A stretch of DNA of 64,000 nucleotides from positions 6,176,001 to 6,240,000 of the forward strand of contig OY762069.1 of assembly GCA_963665095.1 (NCBI GenBank). Reading direction: 5' to 3'. The notes beneath the pieces were generated by a model. That model saw only the letters and a program-made list of their open reading frames with translations, had not been told where the DNA came from and searched no databases. The stretch's first letter is position 1. Each line of letters begins with the position of its first letter. This DNA comes from an uncultured Desulfobacter sp. GTDB lineage: Bacteria; Desulfobacterota; Desulfobacteria; Desulfobacterales; Desulfobacteraceae. Below, piece by piece: positions 5,691-15,043 of this stretch. Made by a program: the position numbers and the translations under genes.

Positions 5691-5996
5691 TCTTTTTCTA
5701 AAAACCACTATTTCTATTTTGATTATTTGTCAAGCTTTTTTTTAAAACTTCGCTTTTTGCCGCCTTTTTAAAATCATACCCACACTGGTATCAATGCCCT
5801 GGTCAGGGCCAATGCATGTAAAAACTAAGCTTAATCCCCAGTAATCTTTACTCCCCTCCCCCCAACGTGCTTCCTCGCTATCGGGATCGCTGTTGCTATC
5901 GAAAATATTTCAGTGCGCGGCACTGAAAACGAATATCCCGGAATTCATTCCCCCCCATTCCCCAAAGCCCCGGCATTAAAAGCCTTGGTTCAACCC

Positions 5997-6286
5997 GTTC
6001 CGGGTCGTGCACCTGCCGTTCGCTGAAATCCGTTTGCAGAATACCTAATTTGTATAGTTAAACGGCAAAAACTGCGGTCCAGTAGGTCCTCAAACAGGTG
6101 TAAGCATAGCTTCTCTTCGAGCGCCGTTCTTAACACTACGCGGCATTAAGAATTTGTAACAAACGAATTCCTGATGCTCTCTTGCAGGCACACGATTCTC
6201 CACTGGAAGATGGAAACAATATCACAGAAAATAAATATGCCATTGTCTTGGAAGTTGCCGGGGAGGCCTTAGGTGGGCTATTGTAG
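5997..6286 (+). repeat. Left copy of a ~105-bp imperfect direct repeat, interrupted by a 180-bp extra segment
   Basis: 5997-6025 and 6203-6286 align with 14648-14756, e.g. the shared CTGGAAGATGGAAACAATATCACAGAAAATAAATATGCCATTG. Confidence 0.85.
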
Positions 6287-6682
6287 ATCACGGTGAGAAT
6301 TGAAATTATCCCCGCAATATATCTACTATTGAATGCTGTTTTGAAATAGGCCTGGGGGGAGGATAAATAGGCAAAAGGCTCGCTTTCTCAGATGTCCACC
6401 AGAGGCAGGAGTATATATATAATTGATTCTTGAGAGTTGGGCCGAACCACAAGATATGGTATCTGAATTCAAATTGGGAACCTGGGCTTTAATACCATTA
6501 TGTTGCGAGCTGGCCTAACATGTTAAATTTAAAGGCGATTTTAGCTACCCATATTGCAAATCAATATTGCATTAAAATTCAACATGTTAACCCTCCTTTT
6601 TAAAATTTTAAAAATCAGTGGCAACATAATTTTTTGTTTTACTACATACCCCTCCAAAGATAGCAAAAGCTGCTTCAGTGGT

Positions 6683-7702
6683 TCATAAACTGTCAAGCCA
6701 GGCAAGGATTTCAGCACTATTTCCCCAGTCGATTAACTCATCAATTTTTTTGTCATGAGTTATTTTCGATTGCATGTATTCCATGAGCGTATTTTGGACT
6801 TCCCGTTTTTTTGACAGATCCAGCTGCAGATAGGTCATTGTTGATTCAATACTTTGATGACCAAGACGATTTTTGATATCCGATACCGGAGCACCTGAAC
6901 TGACCATGTTGACTGCGCACGAATGCCTGAAGCAGTGAGCCGGGCTCAGTCCTTTCAGCCTTTTTTCCGGCAAGGCCAAGGTCAAATATTTCCTGCAAAT
7001 CTTATTTATTCCGTGCCGAGTCATTTCCCGCTTCCGTTGATTGATAAACAGCCTATGGGCAAATAAAGGGATGGGATCTACCCTGTGATTGCTGATATAG
7101 TCCGAGATCAACGAGGCTGTTCTGGAGCATAGATTAATCAACCGGTATCGGTTTCCCTTTCCCAGGACCGCAATGGTTTCGTTTTCAGGATCAAAATAAT
7201 CAAATTCCAATGTGGCAATTTCACTGGCCCGGGCACCGGAGTCATAAAGCAGATGGAGAATGGTAAAGTCCCTCATGCCTTCTTTCTTTTTCAGATCTAC
7301 GGCACTAAAGACTTTCATGATTTCTTCGGGATATAAAAACCCCATCACCTTTTTTTGAGCTCTTTTCTGAGGGATGTTCAGGAGGCTCTCGGCAATTCTT
7401 TTTTTATCCGGATGCATGAAGCGGATCATCTTAGCCAAAGACTTGATCACAGCCAGGCGTTGGTTTCGAGTCTGCACGCTATTTTTTCGATTTTTTTCCA
7501 GATGCTGGAGAAAGGCAAGCACTGCATCCACCGTTAAGTGTTCTATTTTCAATGACTTGATTTTTATTGAGTGATGATTCGCCAAAAAATGCAGGAATAA
7601 AGACAGGCTCTGCCGGTAAGCTTGAACACTTTGTTTGCTCGTCCCTTTTATCGAGGGCAAGTATTCATAAAAATACTGGTGCAGGCAACTTGTCAATCTC
7701 AT
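6683..7702 (-). CDS. Tyrosine recombinase, RitC-like (third of trio)
   Basis: N-terminal SAM-like domain (YRQSLSLFL, RNQRLAVIKS); SGARASE, LGKGNRYR, HCFRHS, LGHQSIESTMTY. Confidence 0.92.
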   Translation of the reverse strand: MRLTSCLHQYFYEYLPSIKGTSKQSVQAYRQSLSLFLHFLANHHSIKIKSLKIEHLTVDAVLAFLQHLEKNRKNSVQTRNQRLAVIKSLAKMIRFMHPDKKRIAESLLNIPQKRAQKKVMGFLYPEEIMKVFSAVDLKKKEGMRDFTILHLLYDSGARASEIATLEFDYFDPENETIAVLGKGNRYRLINLCSRTASLISDYISNHRVDPIPLFAHRLFINQRKREMTRHGINKICRKYLTLALPEKRLKGLSPAHCFRHSCAVNMVSSGAPVSDIKNRLGHQSIESTMTYLQLDLSKKREVQNTLMEYMQSKITHDKKIDELIDWGNSAEILAWLDSL

Positions 7703-8673
7703 GCACCCTCGCTTTTTGATCTCGAGAAATCAAACAGTTGCCGACGGTGCTCAGCATCCAGTACCTTCAAATAATAGGTCGTGTATTTGTATTTGCTGTG
7801 CCCCATATAAGCCGCCAGTACAGGCAGGGCATTTTGGCAGGATTTTCCTCGCTGTTTTATCCTTTTCAGCGTGTTCACAGCAAACGAATGCCGCAGGGAA
7901 TGATGAGAAGGCTGGCTGAAGTTTGTAGTACCGATTATTTTCCTGGAGTGATCAAGATTAATATCTGTGAGTGCCTGTTTAAATCTGCGATTTATAAACA
8001 TACGTACTAGTTTTTTCCCTTTCACCTTTACCAGCAAAAAAGGGCTGTCATCCTCATCAGGGAATAACCGGCGAACTTTTAGCAGGTTGTTGATTTCATG
8101 GGCTACGGCTTTGGGTATAGGGATCAATCGATCTTTTCTAAATTTTGTCTTTTCAATATAGATTGTTCTTTCTTCGGGCCTGTAATGGGTTTTCAATAAA
8201 TTAATGGTCTCCGAGGTTCTAAGTCCGCACCGGGCCATCAACAAAAAGGCAATATAAGCGCTGAAATCTGACACATAGAATCTTTGACTTGTCCGCAGCG
8301 ACTTGACTGCAGCCTTGAGAAAACGGTCAGTTTCTTCCGGAGAAAATATAAAAGGAATAACGAGATTTTCCTGTAGCTCAGTGATTTCCTGTAACGGATT
8401 TTCCAGGATCACATCCTTGCGTATAAGATAATTGAAAAAGATCTTGAGCATTCTAAAAATCGTATTTATGGACCGGGGTTCAAGATCAAGTTCTGCTCTG
8501 AACCGGATAAAAAACAGCGGATCAAAGGATGCCCAAGTCACTTGTTTTTCAGATACATATCGATCAAGCACCCTAAGACCGTATATCATTGAGGTGTTTG
8601 AGTACCCCAGTTGAAAACGATATTCGAGGAAATCCTCCATTGGTTCAGCCAAAAAACTTTTAAAACGTTTCAT
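7699..8673 (-). CDS. Tyrosine recombinase, RitB-like (second of trio)
   Basis: CGLRTSE, KTKFRKDRLIP, HSLRHSFAVNTL, LPVLAAYMGH...TTYYL. Stop overlaps the next start (ATGA); SD GGGAGG. Confidence 0.92.
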   Translation of the reverse strand: MKRFKSFLAEPMEDFLEYRFQLGYSNTSMIYGLRVLDRYVSEKQVTWASFDPLFFIRFRAELDLEPRSINTIFRMLKIFFNYLIRKDVILENPLQEITELQENLVIPFIFSPEETDRFLKAAVKSLRTSQRFYVSDFSAYIAFLLMARCGLRTSETINLLKTHYRPEERTIYIEKTKFRKDRLIPIPKAVAHEINNLLKVRRLFPDEDDSPFLLVKVKGKKLVRMFINRRFKQALTDINLDHSRKIIGTTNFSQPSHHSLRHSFAVNTLKRIKQRGKSCQNALPVLAAYMGHSKYKYTTYYLKVLDAEHRRQLFDFSRSKSEGA

Positions 8674-9547
8674 CAAGAATAACCTCCCGCATCAGGCCGA
8701 TATGAATACTCAGATACTTTTTGGTCGAATCGAGGCTTTTATGTCCCATCATTTCTTTGATTTCATAGATGGACATACCGGATTCCAACATATTCTGGGC
8801 AAACGAATGCCGCAGCCAGTATGTACTTGATCCAAGATTCTTTTTCGTCATGCATTCTTTTATATCTCGGGGGATATCGCTCCTGTTGGCCGGTTTATAA
8901 GGTGGTGTCAACTGTAAAAATAGAACTCGGGATTGGGTTTCAGGTCTCCCGCCCACAATATAGGCAGTGATCGCTTTGATGATGTTGTCGGGAAGGGGAA
9001 GATGGGCAGGATTGCAATTTTTTCTTGAACGGATAAAAATTTCTTTCTGTCTGAATGAGATGTCATCCAGGGTTAGCAACCTGATTTCTTTGGGTCTCAA
9101 TCCCAGGTAATACGCCAGGTGTATGGCGGCATTCGTGCGAAGATCTTTTGCTGTTGATAGACCCAGACTGTCAAACAGTTTTTGAACTTCATGGGAGCGT
9201 AAAAATTTGAGTGGCTTTAGTTGTCCGAACTCCGGAGGGCTTACTATCAAAGGGGCGAGATCTTTTTTGATATATTGTTCCAGATAAAGATATCTCAAAA
9301 ACTGCCTGAGATATGACCGGTTCGATTTAGCGGTCCCTATGGAATAATTGGTATTGTACAGGGCTAAAAATTGATCAACCTTCTGGATGGATATCTCATT
9401 CAGGGGGACGCCTGATTTTTGCAGATAAATATCCAAACCTGTCAATATCCGCTGCATTCCTCTGACGCTTTGCTGACCACGAACTTGATGACTATAATAA
9501 TCCAGATACCGCTGACAGATTTCCGGCAATATATGATCAGGTGTCAT
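8660..9547 (-). CDS. Tyrosine recombinase, RitA-like (first of trio)
   Basis: LRQFLRYLY, LGLRPKE, YWLRHSFA, MGHKSLDSTKKYL; overlaps both neighbours. Confidence 0.9.
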   Translation of the reverse strand: MTPDHILPEICQRYLDYYSHQVRGQQSVRGMQRILTGLDIYLQKSGVPLNEISIQKVDQFLALYNTNYSIGTAKSNRSYLRQFLRYLYLEQYIKKDLAPLIVSPPEFGQLKPLKFLRSHEVQKLFDSLGLSTAKDLRTNAAIHLAYYLGLRPKEIRLLTLDDISFRQKEIFIRSRKNCNPAHLPLPDNIIKAITAYIVGGRPETQSRVLFLQLTPPYKPANRSDIPRDIKECMTKKNLGSSTYWLRHSFAQNMLESGMSIYEIKEMMGHKSLDSTKKYLSIHIGLMREVILDETF

Positions 9548-9845
9548 GACCGGATTCCCTTGCGGTTAAAATCGTCTGCAGATATTTTACGCTGCTGACA
9601 AAATCGGTGTTGCGGCAGATCATTACCATATCGATGGTGTTAAAATTTCTTTCGCATCGAAAGCACCGGCTCAAATTCGTTCTGGGATTAACCGCGGTCT
9701 GGAACTCGTTGCACAAGGGGCACAGAAAACGGAAAACCCCTTCACTGATTTTGGCCGGGATACCCAGCTGTGCTTCGATCAGTACATGAATGGGTATTGA
9801 ATTTCGTAAGTTATAAAGTTCCTTTGAAGAAAATAGTTTGCCCAT
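9537..9845 (-). CDS. Small CHC2-like (primase-type) zinc-finger protein
   Basis: FLCPLCNE...RCFRCERNFNTIDMVM...DFVSSVKYL resembles the DnaG zinc-binding domain; SD GAGG. Confidence 0.75.
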   Translation of the reverse strand: MGKLFSSKELYNLRNSIPIHVLIEAQLGIPAKISEGVFRFLCPLCNEFQTAVNPRTNLSRCFRCERNFNTIDMVMICRNTDFVSSVKYLQTILTARESGHDT

Positions 9846-10350
9846 GTTGACACCTCTTCTTTTTGGTCAGTTCTTTCAGAATATCTGGCGTCAACTTTAC
9901 CGTTTCCTGGTCCGTGGCATCAATAATCTCTTGTAACGCATTTTTATTAAGAAGGGTGTCAAATCCAATAAAGACAAGGGTCTTGGTCGATATTAAATCT
10001 TGTAACGGTATTTGAATTAAATCCGTCGAAGAGCCTTTACCAGTAATGCTTTTGCCGGTTTTCATCTCTTGTAACGCATCTTCAGTTAAGAATGGTCTTT
10101 TGCGGGGCTTTTTTCGCTTCCAGTAACCTGGATTGGTTTGACGCCACTCCTGAACACGGGCAACATTCTCAGGACCTGAGAAATAATCCTGATTTTTGGG
10201 TTGATTCAGCCATTTTTGCTGGCTGTGTTTTTTACTGGCAATTTTACATTCTGGTTTGTCGCAAAATCTTTGCCGCTTCAAATGCCGGGGATCTGGTTTG
10301 AATAAATTTTGGCAGTTTTTACACCTGCGCTGTCGGATTTGTTTTTTCAT
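9811..10350 (-). CDS. Hypothetical zinc-finger protein (CxxC...CxxxxC, PGYW motif, repeated LQ[ED])
   Basis: Strong SD AAGGAGG; RRCKNCQNLFKPDPR...FCDKPECK...WRQTNPGYWKR; overlaps the CHC2 gene. Confidence 0.7.
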   Translation of the reverse strand: MKKQIRQRRCKNCQNLFKPDPRHLKRQRFCDKPECKIASKKHSQQKWLNQPKNQDYFSGPENVARVQEWRQTNPGYWKRKKPRKRPFLTEDALQEMKTGKSITGKGSSTDLIQIPLQDLISTKTLVFIGFDTLLNKNALQEIIDATDQETVKLTPDILKELTKKKRCQHGQTIFFKGTL

Positions 10351-10902
10351 AGACCTGATACCTCCTTAGGTCTATGATCGGACGAATGATGGCGGGGTAG
10401 TATTTTTTCAAAATATGGCGGGGTCTTGCAGGGTCCGGCTGGATCGGGCGGGGTAAAACACGCAACAAAAAAAACTCGCTACATAAATACCATAAGTGCT
10501 TAGTCAATTTTATCCCGGATTAATAAGATTTTTATCCAAGGTCGAATGGAGTAATTTTTTATCAATCTAATTTGACACTTAGTCTTTTTATCCTTATTTT
10601 CATTTTGATAATGTTTTTAGATTAGTGAATATCGCTAAGATTACGAGTCTAAACCAATTACTTGATGCAATGTTGATAACAGGAAGCCTATTTTTACTAT
10701 CTTTAATTAAACCAGCATTTAATTTAGTGACACGAAGAGTTAAACCCTTCCTGATGGAGGCAATGCCTATGGTTATCAATATATCGAATGAATTCGTTGT
10801 TAATCTCACAGCTTTTTGTATCAATGTCATCGCAACAGGGCGGACTCCACTAATCTAAGAACATTATTCGTTTAGTTCGTGGTAAGGAGCACGCACTCTG
10901 GA

Positions 10903-11145
10903 ATGAGTATAAATATAAAGCTTGTTGAATTCCGTAAAAAAATTAGAAAGAATCAAAAGAAAATTATAGATTCAATTATTGAAAATCACACAAAAAATAT
11001 TTGTATCTTTTGCGGAGAATCTGAGAACCTGACTAAAGAACATGTGATTCCCCAATGGGTTTATGACCATTGCACTAAGCGGGCTTTTGTTACTACAATA
11101 AATAACAAGTCGCAAACTTATCACATGGCAACGCTTCCATGTTGA
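10903..11145 (+). pseudogene. N-terminal fragment of an HNH-like endonuclease
   Basis: CIFCGESENLTKEHVIPQW...TLPC, then a stop where IS1634-derived sequence begins. Confidence 0.6.
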
Positions 11146-12063
11146 TTAGCCGGCAATCGGCTCAGGAAACGAATCCCGTTTCTCTGTGCAGCTATAAGGT
11201 TATCTGTGGTTACAAAGGCTGAATCTGCGACATAAATGGATGCTCCCGGCTTGAATCCATGTTCAGCCATGTGTGATGAAATATGAGATAACAGCTCATT
11301 GTTCAGGGTCTTGTCTGAAGCATTCCCGTTCTGGGTTTTTCCTATGATCGGAATATTTCGGTCTACACACAACATGGACACCATGAATTGCTTCAAATCC
11401 GGTCGTTTATCCTTGCTGTAACCGTAGGTGATATTCAATGGCGTATCGGGGTAATCTTCGTAAGCACCAAAAACGGAAACAGAGGTAGTATCAAAGTGGT
11501 GATGGCGCGTATCCAGTTTAAAACAACCGATGGCATTTTGGGAAATCTGGGAAAATATCTTTTGAGTTCCCGTCTCAAAAAGCTTGTCCAATACCCGCCC
11601 GAGATTTGTGTCGTTAAATTTATCAGGACTAATGGGTTTGCCAAAAAGCAACTCGGTATCCATCTCGTCGAAAGCCTCTTCGAGTCGGTACAAAGGAGTC
11701 CTTCCGGAGACAGTATCCATAATCATCCCAAGGACTGCATCGCCTGGCGATAGTTCCATTTTGCTATCTGTCATGGTATTGATCGTTTCAACCAGGTTGA
11801 TACGTTTAGCGTACTCTTTGAAAATCGGAAGAAATTTTACATCTGTGAAATTCCATTCCTCGGTACCTGGAATGTTCATATTTTGCCCCCCTCGGTTTTG
11901 AGTTTTTTTGGGGAGCACCATAGACTAAATATTTGTGTTTGCATAGACAAACATTTTTTATTTATTTGATTTTTATGAAATGTTTGAAAACCAAGTTAAC
12001 CTACTTATTTTAAATAATTTTAAATTGTAGGCGCTTTATCACTTGAAGGTGAGGAAAATACGA
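11145..12063 (-). mobile_element. Truncated IS1634-family element (N-terminal half of transposase, ORF 11121-11921)
   Basis: HFDTTSVSVFG, GYSKDKRPDLKQF, GNASDK, VADSA, FLSRLP; the third catalytic E region is absent. Candidate left end near 12048-12063. Confidence 0.8.
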
Positions 12064-13824: not shown

Positions 13825-14097
13825 ATGAATTTGGTCATTTTACACAGAAAAGCTGAGAAACAGCTAAAGAAGATTCCGACCTATATTAGAATTAATTTTC
13901 AAATTTGGGTTCAAGATGTTGAGGCAAACGGAATTGAAAATACAAGAACTGTTCCGGGATATCATGATGCGCCGTTAAAGGGACAGCGATCTGGTCAACG
14001 ATCAATAAGACTATCAAGAGCCTACAGGGCAATATATGTTGAGCATGAGGATAATATAATTATTGAAGTCATAGAGGTGAATAAACATGAGTATTAA
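13825..14097 (+). CDS. RelE/HigB-type toxin
   Basis: 90 aa; GYHDAPLKGQRSGQRSIRLSRAYRAIY; lies upstream of and overlaps an HTH gene. Confidence 0.82.
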   Translation: MNLVILHRKAEKQLKKIPTYIRINFQIWVQDVEANGIENTRTVPGYHDAPLKGQRSGQRSIRLSRAYRAIYVEHEDNIIIEVIEVNKHEY

Positions 14098-14386
14098 AGA
14101 AACACTTTCCGCAAAATTGGAAAAAGAATATGGGCCTGTCACTTTTGGCCGTGCGCTCTGGGCGTATCGGAAGGGTGAAGAAATGACTCAGACCGAATTA
14201 GCACATACCTTGGGTATATCATCTTCAAGTCTCTGTGATTTAGAAAAAGGACGTACTATACCCACTGTTCGCCGAGCCGCTAAGCTTGCTAAACAGTTAG
14301 GACAATCTGAAAAAATGTGGGTCCAGTTGGCTGTTCAGGATTCTTTTGACGACGCTGGATTGAATTATAGAATTTCCTTGGCATAA
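14087..14386 (+). CDS. HigA-type XRE HTH antitoxin
   Basis: EMTQTELAHTLGISSSSLCDLEKGR; toxin-first gene order. Confidence 0.82.
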   Translation: MSIKETLSAKLEKEYGPVTFGRALWAYRKGEEMTQTELAHTLGISSSSLCDLEKGRTIPTVRRAAKLAKQLGQSEKMWVQLAVQDSFDDAGLNYRISLA

Positions 14387-14647
14387 TTTTATAAAACAAA
14401 AAATTGAACAAGCACTAATGGTATCAAGGGTCAACCCTAACCCGAATATTTCATGACTTTTTGAGTGATTACGCAAAATGCATTATCATCACAGATTGTT
14501 ACATTAAATATTAAGATATTTTTAAACATACAAATTGTCATCCTCCGGGCGAAGTGAAATATCCGGGCTAAATCCCTATCGGCAAGGAATAGCGAAAGTA
14601 GTAAACGACTTTATTACCAATGGTTTCGGCCATAATTCATAGACATA

Positions 14648-14756
14648 GTTCCGGGCCGTGCGTCTGCCGTTCGCTGGAAGATGGAAACAATATCACAGAA
14701 AATAAATATGCCATTGCCCTGGAAGTTGCCGGGGAGGCCTTGGGTGGCTGTTGTGG
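14648..14756 (+). repeat. Right, uninterrupted copy of the ~105-bp direct repeat
   Basis: GTTCCGGGCCGTGCGTCTGCCGTTCGCTGGAAGATGG...GGGAGGCCTTGGGTGG matches 5997-6025 plus 6203-6286. Confidence 0.85.
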
Positions 14757-15043
14757 AGTGTTAAAATCTTTGCGTGCGGAACAACAGCCTGCCCAAGGCC
14801 GGATTTGGATGTGGCAGAGGGAATCGGGAACCATAGGAGTATAAGGGTAAGGGGTGTCGATAGCGGCTGGAAAGGCGGAGCCAAATTGGGTAAAGTTTAT
14901 ACTTTAAATTCTGTAATTAGATTACATGCGTTAGCCCTGGTGAAAAACAATACATTTGGAGAAATAGGTTTGACAAAAAAAATAGTGCATGCTACCCCTG
15001 TTTTAAGTAGCCAATATTAATTTCACGAGAGAGGTAAAACAGT

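Follow-up and report, generated by a model that had tools for sequence, protein, structure and literature searches.

A portable two-gene leader with repeat arrays in a variant RIT element of Desulfobacter: a candidate switch for recombinase expression

The recombinase trio of a RIT element in an uncultured Desulfobacter sp. is headed by two genes encoding zinc-binding proteins and by two arrays of direct repeats. As read from the sequence, the layout is left end, array 1, gene 1 (enclosing array 2 and the promoter-like P2), gene 2 and ritABC, and comparison of loci indicates that this cassette is exchanged between RIT, IS21 and DDE/AAA elements. The cassette is real, selected, mobile and apparently undescribed: a literature search found no description of it, with ISfinder, the original RIT paper (Ricker et al. 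2013) and supplements, which may list the ORFs, lying outside its scope. We regard it as moderately probable that both genes and both arrays constitute a portable two-gene feedback switch controlling the expression of the recombinases. The window referred to below is the whole analysed stretch of 64,000 nucleotides of contig OY762069.1.

A five-gene variant of the RIT element

The element is 4.0 kb long and carries five genes between exact ends at 6492 and 10492 (Table 1); DNA similarity to independent insertions breaks off at about 6492 and 10493, and uninterrupted five-gene elements of its clade measure 3,991-4,069 bp. The right arm is an inverted copy of the left at 11 of 12 bp. The repeat finder returned no terminal repeat of 28-34 bp, the length of the terminal inverted repeats in the available portions of the published RIT accounts (PMC3414803, PMC10214605, PMC8138268); the 12-bp arms are clear and adjoin a 6-bp direct core, and this core is identical at both ends in 27 of the 29 elements having both ends.

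All three recombinases score above the PF00589 cutoff, are encoded by genes overlapping by 17 and 4 bp, and contain the catalytic motifs R, RH, H and Y, with Trp in RitA at the place of the usual first His of HxxR. A search of GTDB contigs with gene 1 returned 16 loci, and 14 of them have the five-gene order, either complete or interrupted by an insertion or the end of a contig. Near-identical copies of the element occupy different sites in two complete genomes, 4 in one and 6 in the other. Three adjacent overlapping tyrosine recombinases with these motifs, inverted ends and several near-identical copies per genome likewise characterize RITs in the same portions of those accounts, and the trio, its motifs and its copies therefore identify the element as a RIT. 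Unlike the published RITs, which are about 3.5 kb long and for which the portions available describe RitA, RitB and RitC only, the 4.0-kb window element and its 4.7-kb sister type exceed the canonical three-gene form; the window element has two extra genes and two repeat arrays inside its left end, and its ends are dif-like, with 12-bp arms and a 6-bp core. RitA yields one SAM-like match only, its deeper relatives measuring 382-430 aa, and the two core-binding domains attributed to RitA in the available part of PMC8138268 are not found in the 295-aa protein. Departing from both the 3.5-kb three-gene form and the two-domain RitA, the element is thus a variant RIT.

Two contigs of run X1 span 6492-10492 without any difference, one contig of that run ends at 10492, and depth is zero over the flank 10509-11000. 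The identical element is therefore present there without the right-hand flank, and both leader genes travel inside the element.

Target sites are semi-specific. The 6-bp core varies by lineage, with three main types (loci L001-L148), the targets appear dif-like by eye, and some copies adjoin sequence resembling their own left arm (L001, L108, L116). An empty site at 14404-14438 of the window resembles the target consensus, has the same 6-bp core and lies directly behind a ParE-type toxin/HTH antitoxin pair at 13825-14386. No circle junction was found in viral contigs, this genome, the fetched loci or the contig joints of four runs, contigs being a form of assembly from which rare forms get dropped.

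Relics of the RIT family are scattered over contig C1 of G000: the end of gene 1 with gene 2 (4194222-4194523), the end of ritC with the right end (5632415-5633190) and a left end alone (3111903-3111963). A second, distant recombinase trio of about 28% identity occupies C1:2749123-2751975, and a multi-copy IS lies immediately upstream of it. In the window, 20-bp inverted repeats (95%) spaced 220 bp apart follow shortly beyond the left end (10608-10867), possibly a miniature element. A truncated IS1634-family transposase (11121-11921, minus strand) abuts an HNH-like ORF fragment (10879-11145), and a stretch 90% identical to this region (10879-11921) is located at C1:4172936-4173860. A repeat family with about ten genome copies is represented at 5967-6287 and again near 14670-14760.

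Table 1. Features of the RIT element and its leader (window coordinates)
Feature	Position	Strand	Remarks
Left end of RIT	10475..10492	-	6-bp core 10487-10492; 12-bp arm 10475-10486
Array 1, ACCCCGCC-type direct repeats	10392..10454	-	10448-10454, 10418-10424, 10392-10398; variant 10428-10434
P1, candidate -10 box, GATCAT	10374..10379	-	weak, by eye; TATCAT/TATTAT in some relatives
Shine-Dalgarno of gene 1, AAGGAGGT	10360..10367	-	read from sequence
Gene 1 ('Z'), 179 aa	9811..10350	-	C4 zinc finger and two basic helices; candidate DNA-binding regulator
Array 2, three CGTTACAAGA repeats inside gene 1	9929..10076	-	10067-10076, 9998-10007, 9929-9938
P2, predicted intragenic sigma-70-type promoter	9894..9923	-	directly behind repeat 3; -35 TTGATG (9918-9923), 18-bp spacer, -10 TAAAGT (9894-9899)
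Gene 2, 102 aa	9537..9845	-	stand-alone primase-type zinc-binding domain, four Cys ligands; SD 9851-9856
ritA-position tyrosine recombinase, 295 aa	8660..9547	-	ORF, Pfam scan
ritB-position tyrosine recombinase, 325 aa	7699..8676	-	ORF, Pfam scan
ritC-position tyrosine recombinase, 339 aa	6683..7702	-	ORF, Pfam scan
Right end of RIT	6492..6509	-	12-bp arm 6498-6509; 6-bp core 6492-6497

The leader genes and their exchange between elements

The original prediction described a 179-aa CxxC/CxxxxC protein with a strong Shine-Dalgarno sequence, followed by a stand-alone primase-type zinc finger of 102 aa, with overlaps of 35 bp between the two genes and 11 bp between gene 2 and ritA. Both ORFs, the Shine-Dalgarno sequence and the cysteine pattern are all present, both overlaps are as described, and matches to CHC2 and 1d0q agree on the primase type. 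Residues C10, C13, C30 and C35 of gene 1 are invariant or nearly so among 54 homologues. The first 80 residues are modelled confidently (pLDDT 80-96) as a small zinc knuckle with two helices and have a median pairwise dN/dS of 0.16; the model of the C-terminal half is of low confidence, dN/dS rises to 0.46 over residues 81-168, and the repeated ALQD/E peptide is the DNA repeat of array 2. The family is large, comprising 3,943 representatives at 50% identity in a profile search, and gene 1 has matches in 32 of 401 genomes of the phylum. No Pfam family scores above cutoff, Pfam has no model for this family, and the fold and family searches gave nothing significant and no match to a known regulator, a result that does not by itself make the fold a new one. 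None of the 54 family members matches Ogr_Delta at E 0.1, and two match the zf-CGNR treble-clef finger weakly (best E 0.0034), with no matching solved chain. We infer that the gene 1 protein is a DNA-binding regulator, which offers a likely function for a large unannotated protein family.

The gene 2 protein exceeds the Pfam CHC2 gathering score (28.3 against 24.9). Among solved structures it matches the DnaG zinc domain best, and the predicted structure (pLDDT 89.5) superimposes on the DnaG zinc-binding domain 1d0q with TM 0.72 and E 1.4e-4. It shares fold and Pfam family (PF01807) with DnaG primase and differs from it in being stand-alone, in co-varying with a repeat array at the element end, in having four invariant Cys ligands (C42, C45, C61, C64) rather than Cys-His-Cys-Cys, and in possessing no polymerase: the Toprim domain is absent, and the dnaG model scores 19 bits against a cutoff of 284. 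These properties suggest that a primase zinc domain can act alone as a sequence-specific binder. The gene has matches in 3 of 301 genomes, mostly inside a multi-copy DDE/AAA element.

Selection on the leader resembles that on the recombinases, the median pairwise dN/dS being 0.11 for gene 2 (31 sequences) against 0.22, 0.19 and 0.10 for RitA, RitB and RitC. Of 30 distinct loci, 12 have gene 2 and ritA overlapping by 11 bp, and in the other 18 a gap of 1-12 bp separates the two genes; an accidental origin of the overlap through shortening of RitA was rejected, tight coupling being conserved in 30 of 30 loci. Loci were also chosen by RitA alone (the best 80 of 246), and 79 of these have a leader. 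Together with the purifying selection, this upholds the earlier view of the two genes as functional parts rather than cargo.

The leader is not constant. Among the best 80 RitA loci, 37 have the present pair and 36 a different one; one combines another gene 1 clade with a winged helix, in five only the second gene is visible, mostly near contig ends, and one, with 5 bp of flank, has nothing. The different pair belongs to the 4.7-kb sister type and consists of a 202-aa DUF6431-like Cys protein (Pfam E 0.095 only), which was not found in the 301 genomes searched, and a winged helix with weak matches to HTH_36, DnaD_N and phage initiators. Leader labels change 10 times on the RitC tree, 10 on RitA and 14 on RitB, of which supported branches force at least 5, 5 and 8. 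The trees are quick IQ-TREE and FastTree reconstructions with identical rows merged and incomplete genes dropped, and the swap counts may be inflated by chimeric metagenome contigs. The same caution applies to single swap pairs: L115/L116 (95.5%) and L146/L147 (93.4%) share their trios and differ in sequence upstream from the ritA start. The same core types are found with both leaders.

Outside RITs, gene 1 heads other elements. In this genome, 13 IS21 copies begin with a 41%-identical gene 1, containing the same triplet of repeats, and a winged helix. Among 29 gene 1 loci outside this genome, istA lies downstream in 17, with a winged helix between in 14; the others comprise one with the winged helix only, two with an IS481-like transposase, one with HTH and excisionase-like genes, and eight relics or contig ends. 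A third gene 1 clade occurs in 24 of 251 genomes at 30 loci, namely RIT with winged helix (7), DDE/AAA with zinc domain (15), IS21-like (1) and relics (7). In the DDE/AAA element the order is gene 1, zinc domain, a 185-aa protein, a transposase-like gene and an AAA ATPase. Across these loci, the clade of gene 1, the type of gene 2 and the type of recombinase are crossed. The proposal that the zinc-finger genes are hard-wired to the trio therefore does not hold, with at least five leader changes per recombinase tree and the same genes heading IS21 and DDE/AAA elements; tabulation of neighbourhoods, suggested along with it, places the homologues mostly on mobile elements, hence not unlinked from them.

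Several of these loci merit separate description. The DDE/AAA element is about 4.5 kb long (L015, L050, L054, L184, L185), encodes a transposase-like protein of 560-580 aa with no Pfam DDE match, and is possibly an unnamed IS group; there are 15 copies in G206, 3 in G264 and a relic at G000 C1:95059-97751. At L046:3-1728 a gene 1 homologue heads an HTH gene and an excisionase-like HTH_17 gene, followed by a further ORF that we take to resemble a plasmid replication initiator. A plasmid of D. autotrophicum HRM2 (L187:311-4531) carries an IS21-like element with gene 1, a ParB-annotated gene, a transposase and an ATPase, in which the zinc-domain gene is terminal and CCCGC repeats occur at both ends. 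One IS21 copy (G000 C1:947471-951011) is interrupted by a 3.5-kb IS of about 13 copies, which encodes a Cys-rich protein, a DDE transposase and an ATPase.

Repeat arrays and predicted promoters

The three CGTTACAAGA repeats of array 2 are spaced by exactly 69 bp in the window. Synonymous sites within the motif are fixed, which indicates that array 2 is conserved as DNA: in 26 genes the Leu codon is TTA in 76 of 76 cases in the motif against 168 of 370 (45%) elsewhere in the same genes, the Gln codon CAA in 76 of 76 against 179 of 306 (58%), and the Ala codon GCG in 63 of 63 against 7 of 112 (6%). Of 49 exact genomic matches to CGTTACAAGA, 42 fall in 14 triplets spaced 69/69. Other gene 1 clades have triplets of GCAAAGATGGAC, of TTT(T/C)AAGA(G/C), which lies largely outside the gene 1 ORF and still keeps a spacing of 69-70 bp, or of GAGATACAAG at 64-66 bp. 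The motif tracks the gene 1 clade, even within one genome, and not the partner gene or the recombinase. It is present in 2-3 copies in 37 of 37 pair-bearing loci against 0 of 36 sister RITs without gene 1; for 17 of these 36, a search that assumed no motif likewise gave no triplet. A held-out betaproteobacterial (Caballeronia) IS21 has an exact 69/69 triplet, with a promoter score of 6/12. The arrays and their spacing are retained in 33 distinct RIT copies. Gene 1 is physically linked to array 2, and co-inheritance is therefore expected whatever binds the array.

P2 points toward gene 2 and ritABC. Behind repeat 3, a sigma-70 score of 8/12 or more is reached in 33/33, 7/7, 7/7, 1/6 and 2/6 arrays of five groups, the weaker last two being IS21 groups, as against 0/59 after repeat 1, 2/59 after repeat 2 and 1-4% at random places; the scoring gave all positions equal freedom, the offsets were chosen after some sequences had been viewed by eye, and the 33 RIT rows are kin. 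A plain consensus scan of the window did not list P2, which scores 8/12 at fixed offsets. The second and sixth bases of its -10 box are invariant in 33 of 33 RIT arrays, and the residues encoded there vary among K, E, P, I, N and L, S. Conserved repeats and an intragenic promoter together point to transcription control.

Other properties of array 2 were considered. The idea of a guide RNA, in which inter-repeat segments specify the target, was rejected because the segments are unchanged across core types, and it is also contradicted by the folding of array RNA, which is no better than that of shuffles (z -0.62); the segments have no match in Rfam. Helical phasing was likewise set aside, since 189 of 238 protein spacings are 23 aa, the rest lean to +/-3-4 aa, and alpha-helix periodicity yields an identical spacing pattern. 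No E. coli IHF consensus with up to one mismatch lies between the repeats of the window or of two DDE leaders, and such matches, scattered elsewhere, amount to resemblance only.

Array 1 starts some 30 bp from the left core. Although gene 1 lies between the two, the array follows the type of gene 2. With duplicates and rows having less than 120 bp of upstream sequence left out, at least two CCCGC occur in 36 of 36 zinc-domain leaders (27/27 RIT, 8/8 DDE, 1/1 further) against 1 of 29 winged-helix leaders (0/5, 0/6, 0/5, 1/13), and at least two TTCTT/TTCCT in none of the 36 against 25 of the 29. The genomic backgrounds are 0.9% for CCCGC and 7.8% for TTCTT/TTCCT, and part of the TTCTT count in sister RITs arises from codons of a reverse-strand ORF. 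This ORF lies near the left end in 22 of 36 sister-type loci (e.g. L082:55-600), making a three-gene leader, and has a Cys motif that we take to be SEC-C-like. The prediction that CCCGC would accompany a zinc domain behind istB in IS21-like elements held in L187, with four copies farther upstream than the 170-bp span of the count and three more, inverted, at the right end; it failed in L179 and L180, which look degenerate. Given this co-variation, array 1 is probably the site of the 102-aa protein, and a regulatory role is suggested for both leader proteins. The consensus scan did not find the candidate box P1.

In the proposed switch, the zinc finger and helix of gene 1 would bind the three array 2 sites and most likely activate P2, a weak promoter with an 18-bp spacer and sites upstream, so that gene 2 and the recombinase genes are switched on. 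In this scheme the protein encoded by gene 2 is a primase zinc domain put to new use in sequence-specific binding, with a winged helix taking its place in sister cassettes; it would bind array 1 before gene 1 and feed back on gene 1, and recombinases might then be produced only as a pulse or in a few cells. The leader works with tyrosine and DDE chemistry alike, lies always upstream and in line, and has its promoter behind an array; a control unit is therefore the simplest reading.

Alternative roles, related systems and implications

The main alternative is possible, if distinctly less probable: the leader proteins may assist recombination or replication in copy-out movement. Bound to array 1, as double- or single-stranded DNA near the left core, gene 2 would bring in host primase, helicase or restart proteins to copy out the strand-transfer intermediate, and array 2 with gene 1 bound would serve as an enhancer or accessory site. 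For the 102-aa protein, the earlier suggestion of an adaptor to forks or single-stranded DNA survives here as the chief competing reading. Each of the two alternative second genes encodes an isolated N-terminal domain of a replication-initiation protein, array 1 lies close to the left core, the 4-6 near-identical copies per genome are as expected from replicative movement, and the inverted CCCGC at the right end of L187 fits an end-processing role better than a switch. Essential helpers have precedents in GinD, Srap and TnpC, in the available portions of PMC5385486 and PMC10214605. Copy-out leaves unexplained, however, why a promoter follows repeat 3 at a constant offset; the array is missing from the right ends of RITs (CCCGC occurs at least once in only 2 of 21), the distance from the end to array 2 varies with element type, and the second gene is absent from 3 of 17 IS21 loci. 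The two readings can be combined.

Control of P2 by a host factor bound to the repeats, with the two proteins doing other work such as RNA binding or inhibition of a host protein, is improbable. The AAG(A) core common to all array 2 variants would suit such a factor, and binding by gene 1 is argued from linkage and co-absence; against it, only 7 of the 49 genomic matches fall outside triplets, and the motif changes with gene 1 clade in one genome yet is identical in a betaproteobacterium. The folding of array RNA also speaks against this reading. More doubtful still is the directionality factor or target selector dedicated to this trio that the original prediction offered, since these proteins accompany tyrosine and DDE chemistry alike. 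Coupling to ritA in all 30 loci and the semi-specific targets would fit it; unrelated leaders stand on trios 93-96% identical, both leaders occur with the same core types, and neither leader protein matches an excisionase or winged-helix (Xis-type) family. That the leader hitch-hiked in with the left end of a captured IS and does nothing for the RIT is hardly credible, since the prevalence of gene 1 homologues in IS21 (17 of 29 loci) and the weak constraint on its C-terminal half are outweighed by dN/dS of 0.11 and 0.16 for gene 2 and the gene 1 N-terminal half inside RITs, by arrays kept in 33 distinct copies and by leaders at 79 of 80 RitA loci.

By analogy, the cassette appears to work most like IS605 with Arc or like a phage zinc-finger activator; it belongs to neither family. 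Ogr of phage P2 and Delta of phage P4 are small four-Cys proteins acting on sites just upstream of the -35 box, and the Mu operator/enhancer O1-O3 has three sites with A/T-rich spacers. Both differ from the present case, with its direct repeats at 69 bp in transposons rather than phages. Ogr is labelled a transcriptional activator in the available part of PMC3091744. Arc of the IS605 family, as far as the available part of its account goes (bioRxiv 10.64898/2026.09.24.754181), is a small IS accessory gene that controls the promoter of the element and is likewise found with diverse mobile elements; it is one ribbon-helix-helix repressor, whereas the present cassette combines two genes with two arrays and an intragenic promoter, and probably includes an activator. 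GInt (GinABCD), SE (IntA-Tfp-IntB-Srap) and Tn554 (TnpABC) resemble the window element in combining several recombinases with small accessory genes and in the 6-bp spacer that separates inverted motifs (PMC5385486; PMC10214605, in the portions available). Compared by description, each of those families has one accessory gene of its own with a helical or coiled-coil product, whereas the trio here is preceded by two zinc-binding genes that DDE elements also have; GInt and SE also have a non-catalytic GinC/Tfp, whereas all three recombinases here have the catalytic Tyr motif. IS21 (IstA/IstB) is described with two essential proteins only, and a two-gene leader is unmentioned in the available part of PMC11208146.

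More speculatively, and with tentative confidence, the mix-and-match circuit might be a general plug-in of mobile elements, in which the gene 1 family (about 3,900 clusters at 50% identity) would fire the intragenic promoter through three sites spaced 69 bp apart, and a replication-initiation domain freed from its enzyme, either the primase zinc domain or an initiator-type winged helix, would read an iteron-like array at the end of the element, closing the loop and recruiting host priming for copy-out. If this is true, one switch that ties expression to replication is common to RIT, IS21 and DDE/AAA elements, and the absence of a leader could explain why transposition of RITs has so far not been reproduced in the laboratory, as stated in the available part of PMC10214605. 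The crossed genes and arrays are ready-made cognate and non-cognate controls. IS21 and other elements reach further at the left end than transposase-centred annotation implies, and this clade, by supplying exact ends, a core, target-like sites and a predicted circuit, makes the mobility of RIT elements and its trigger testable.
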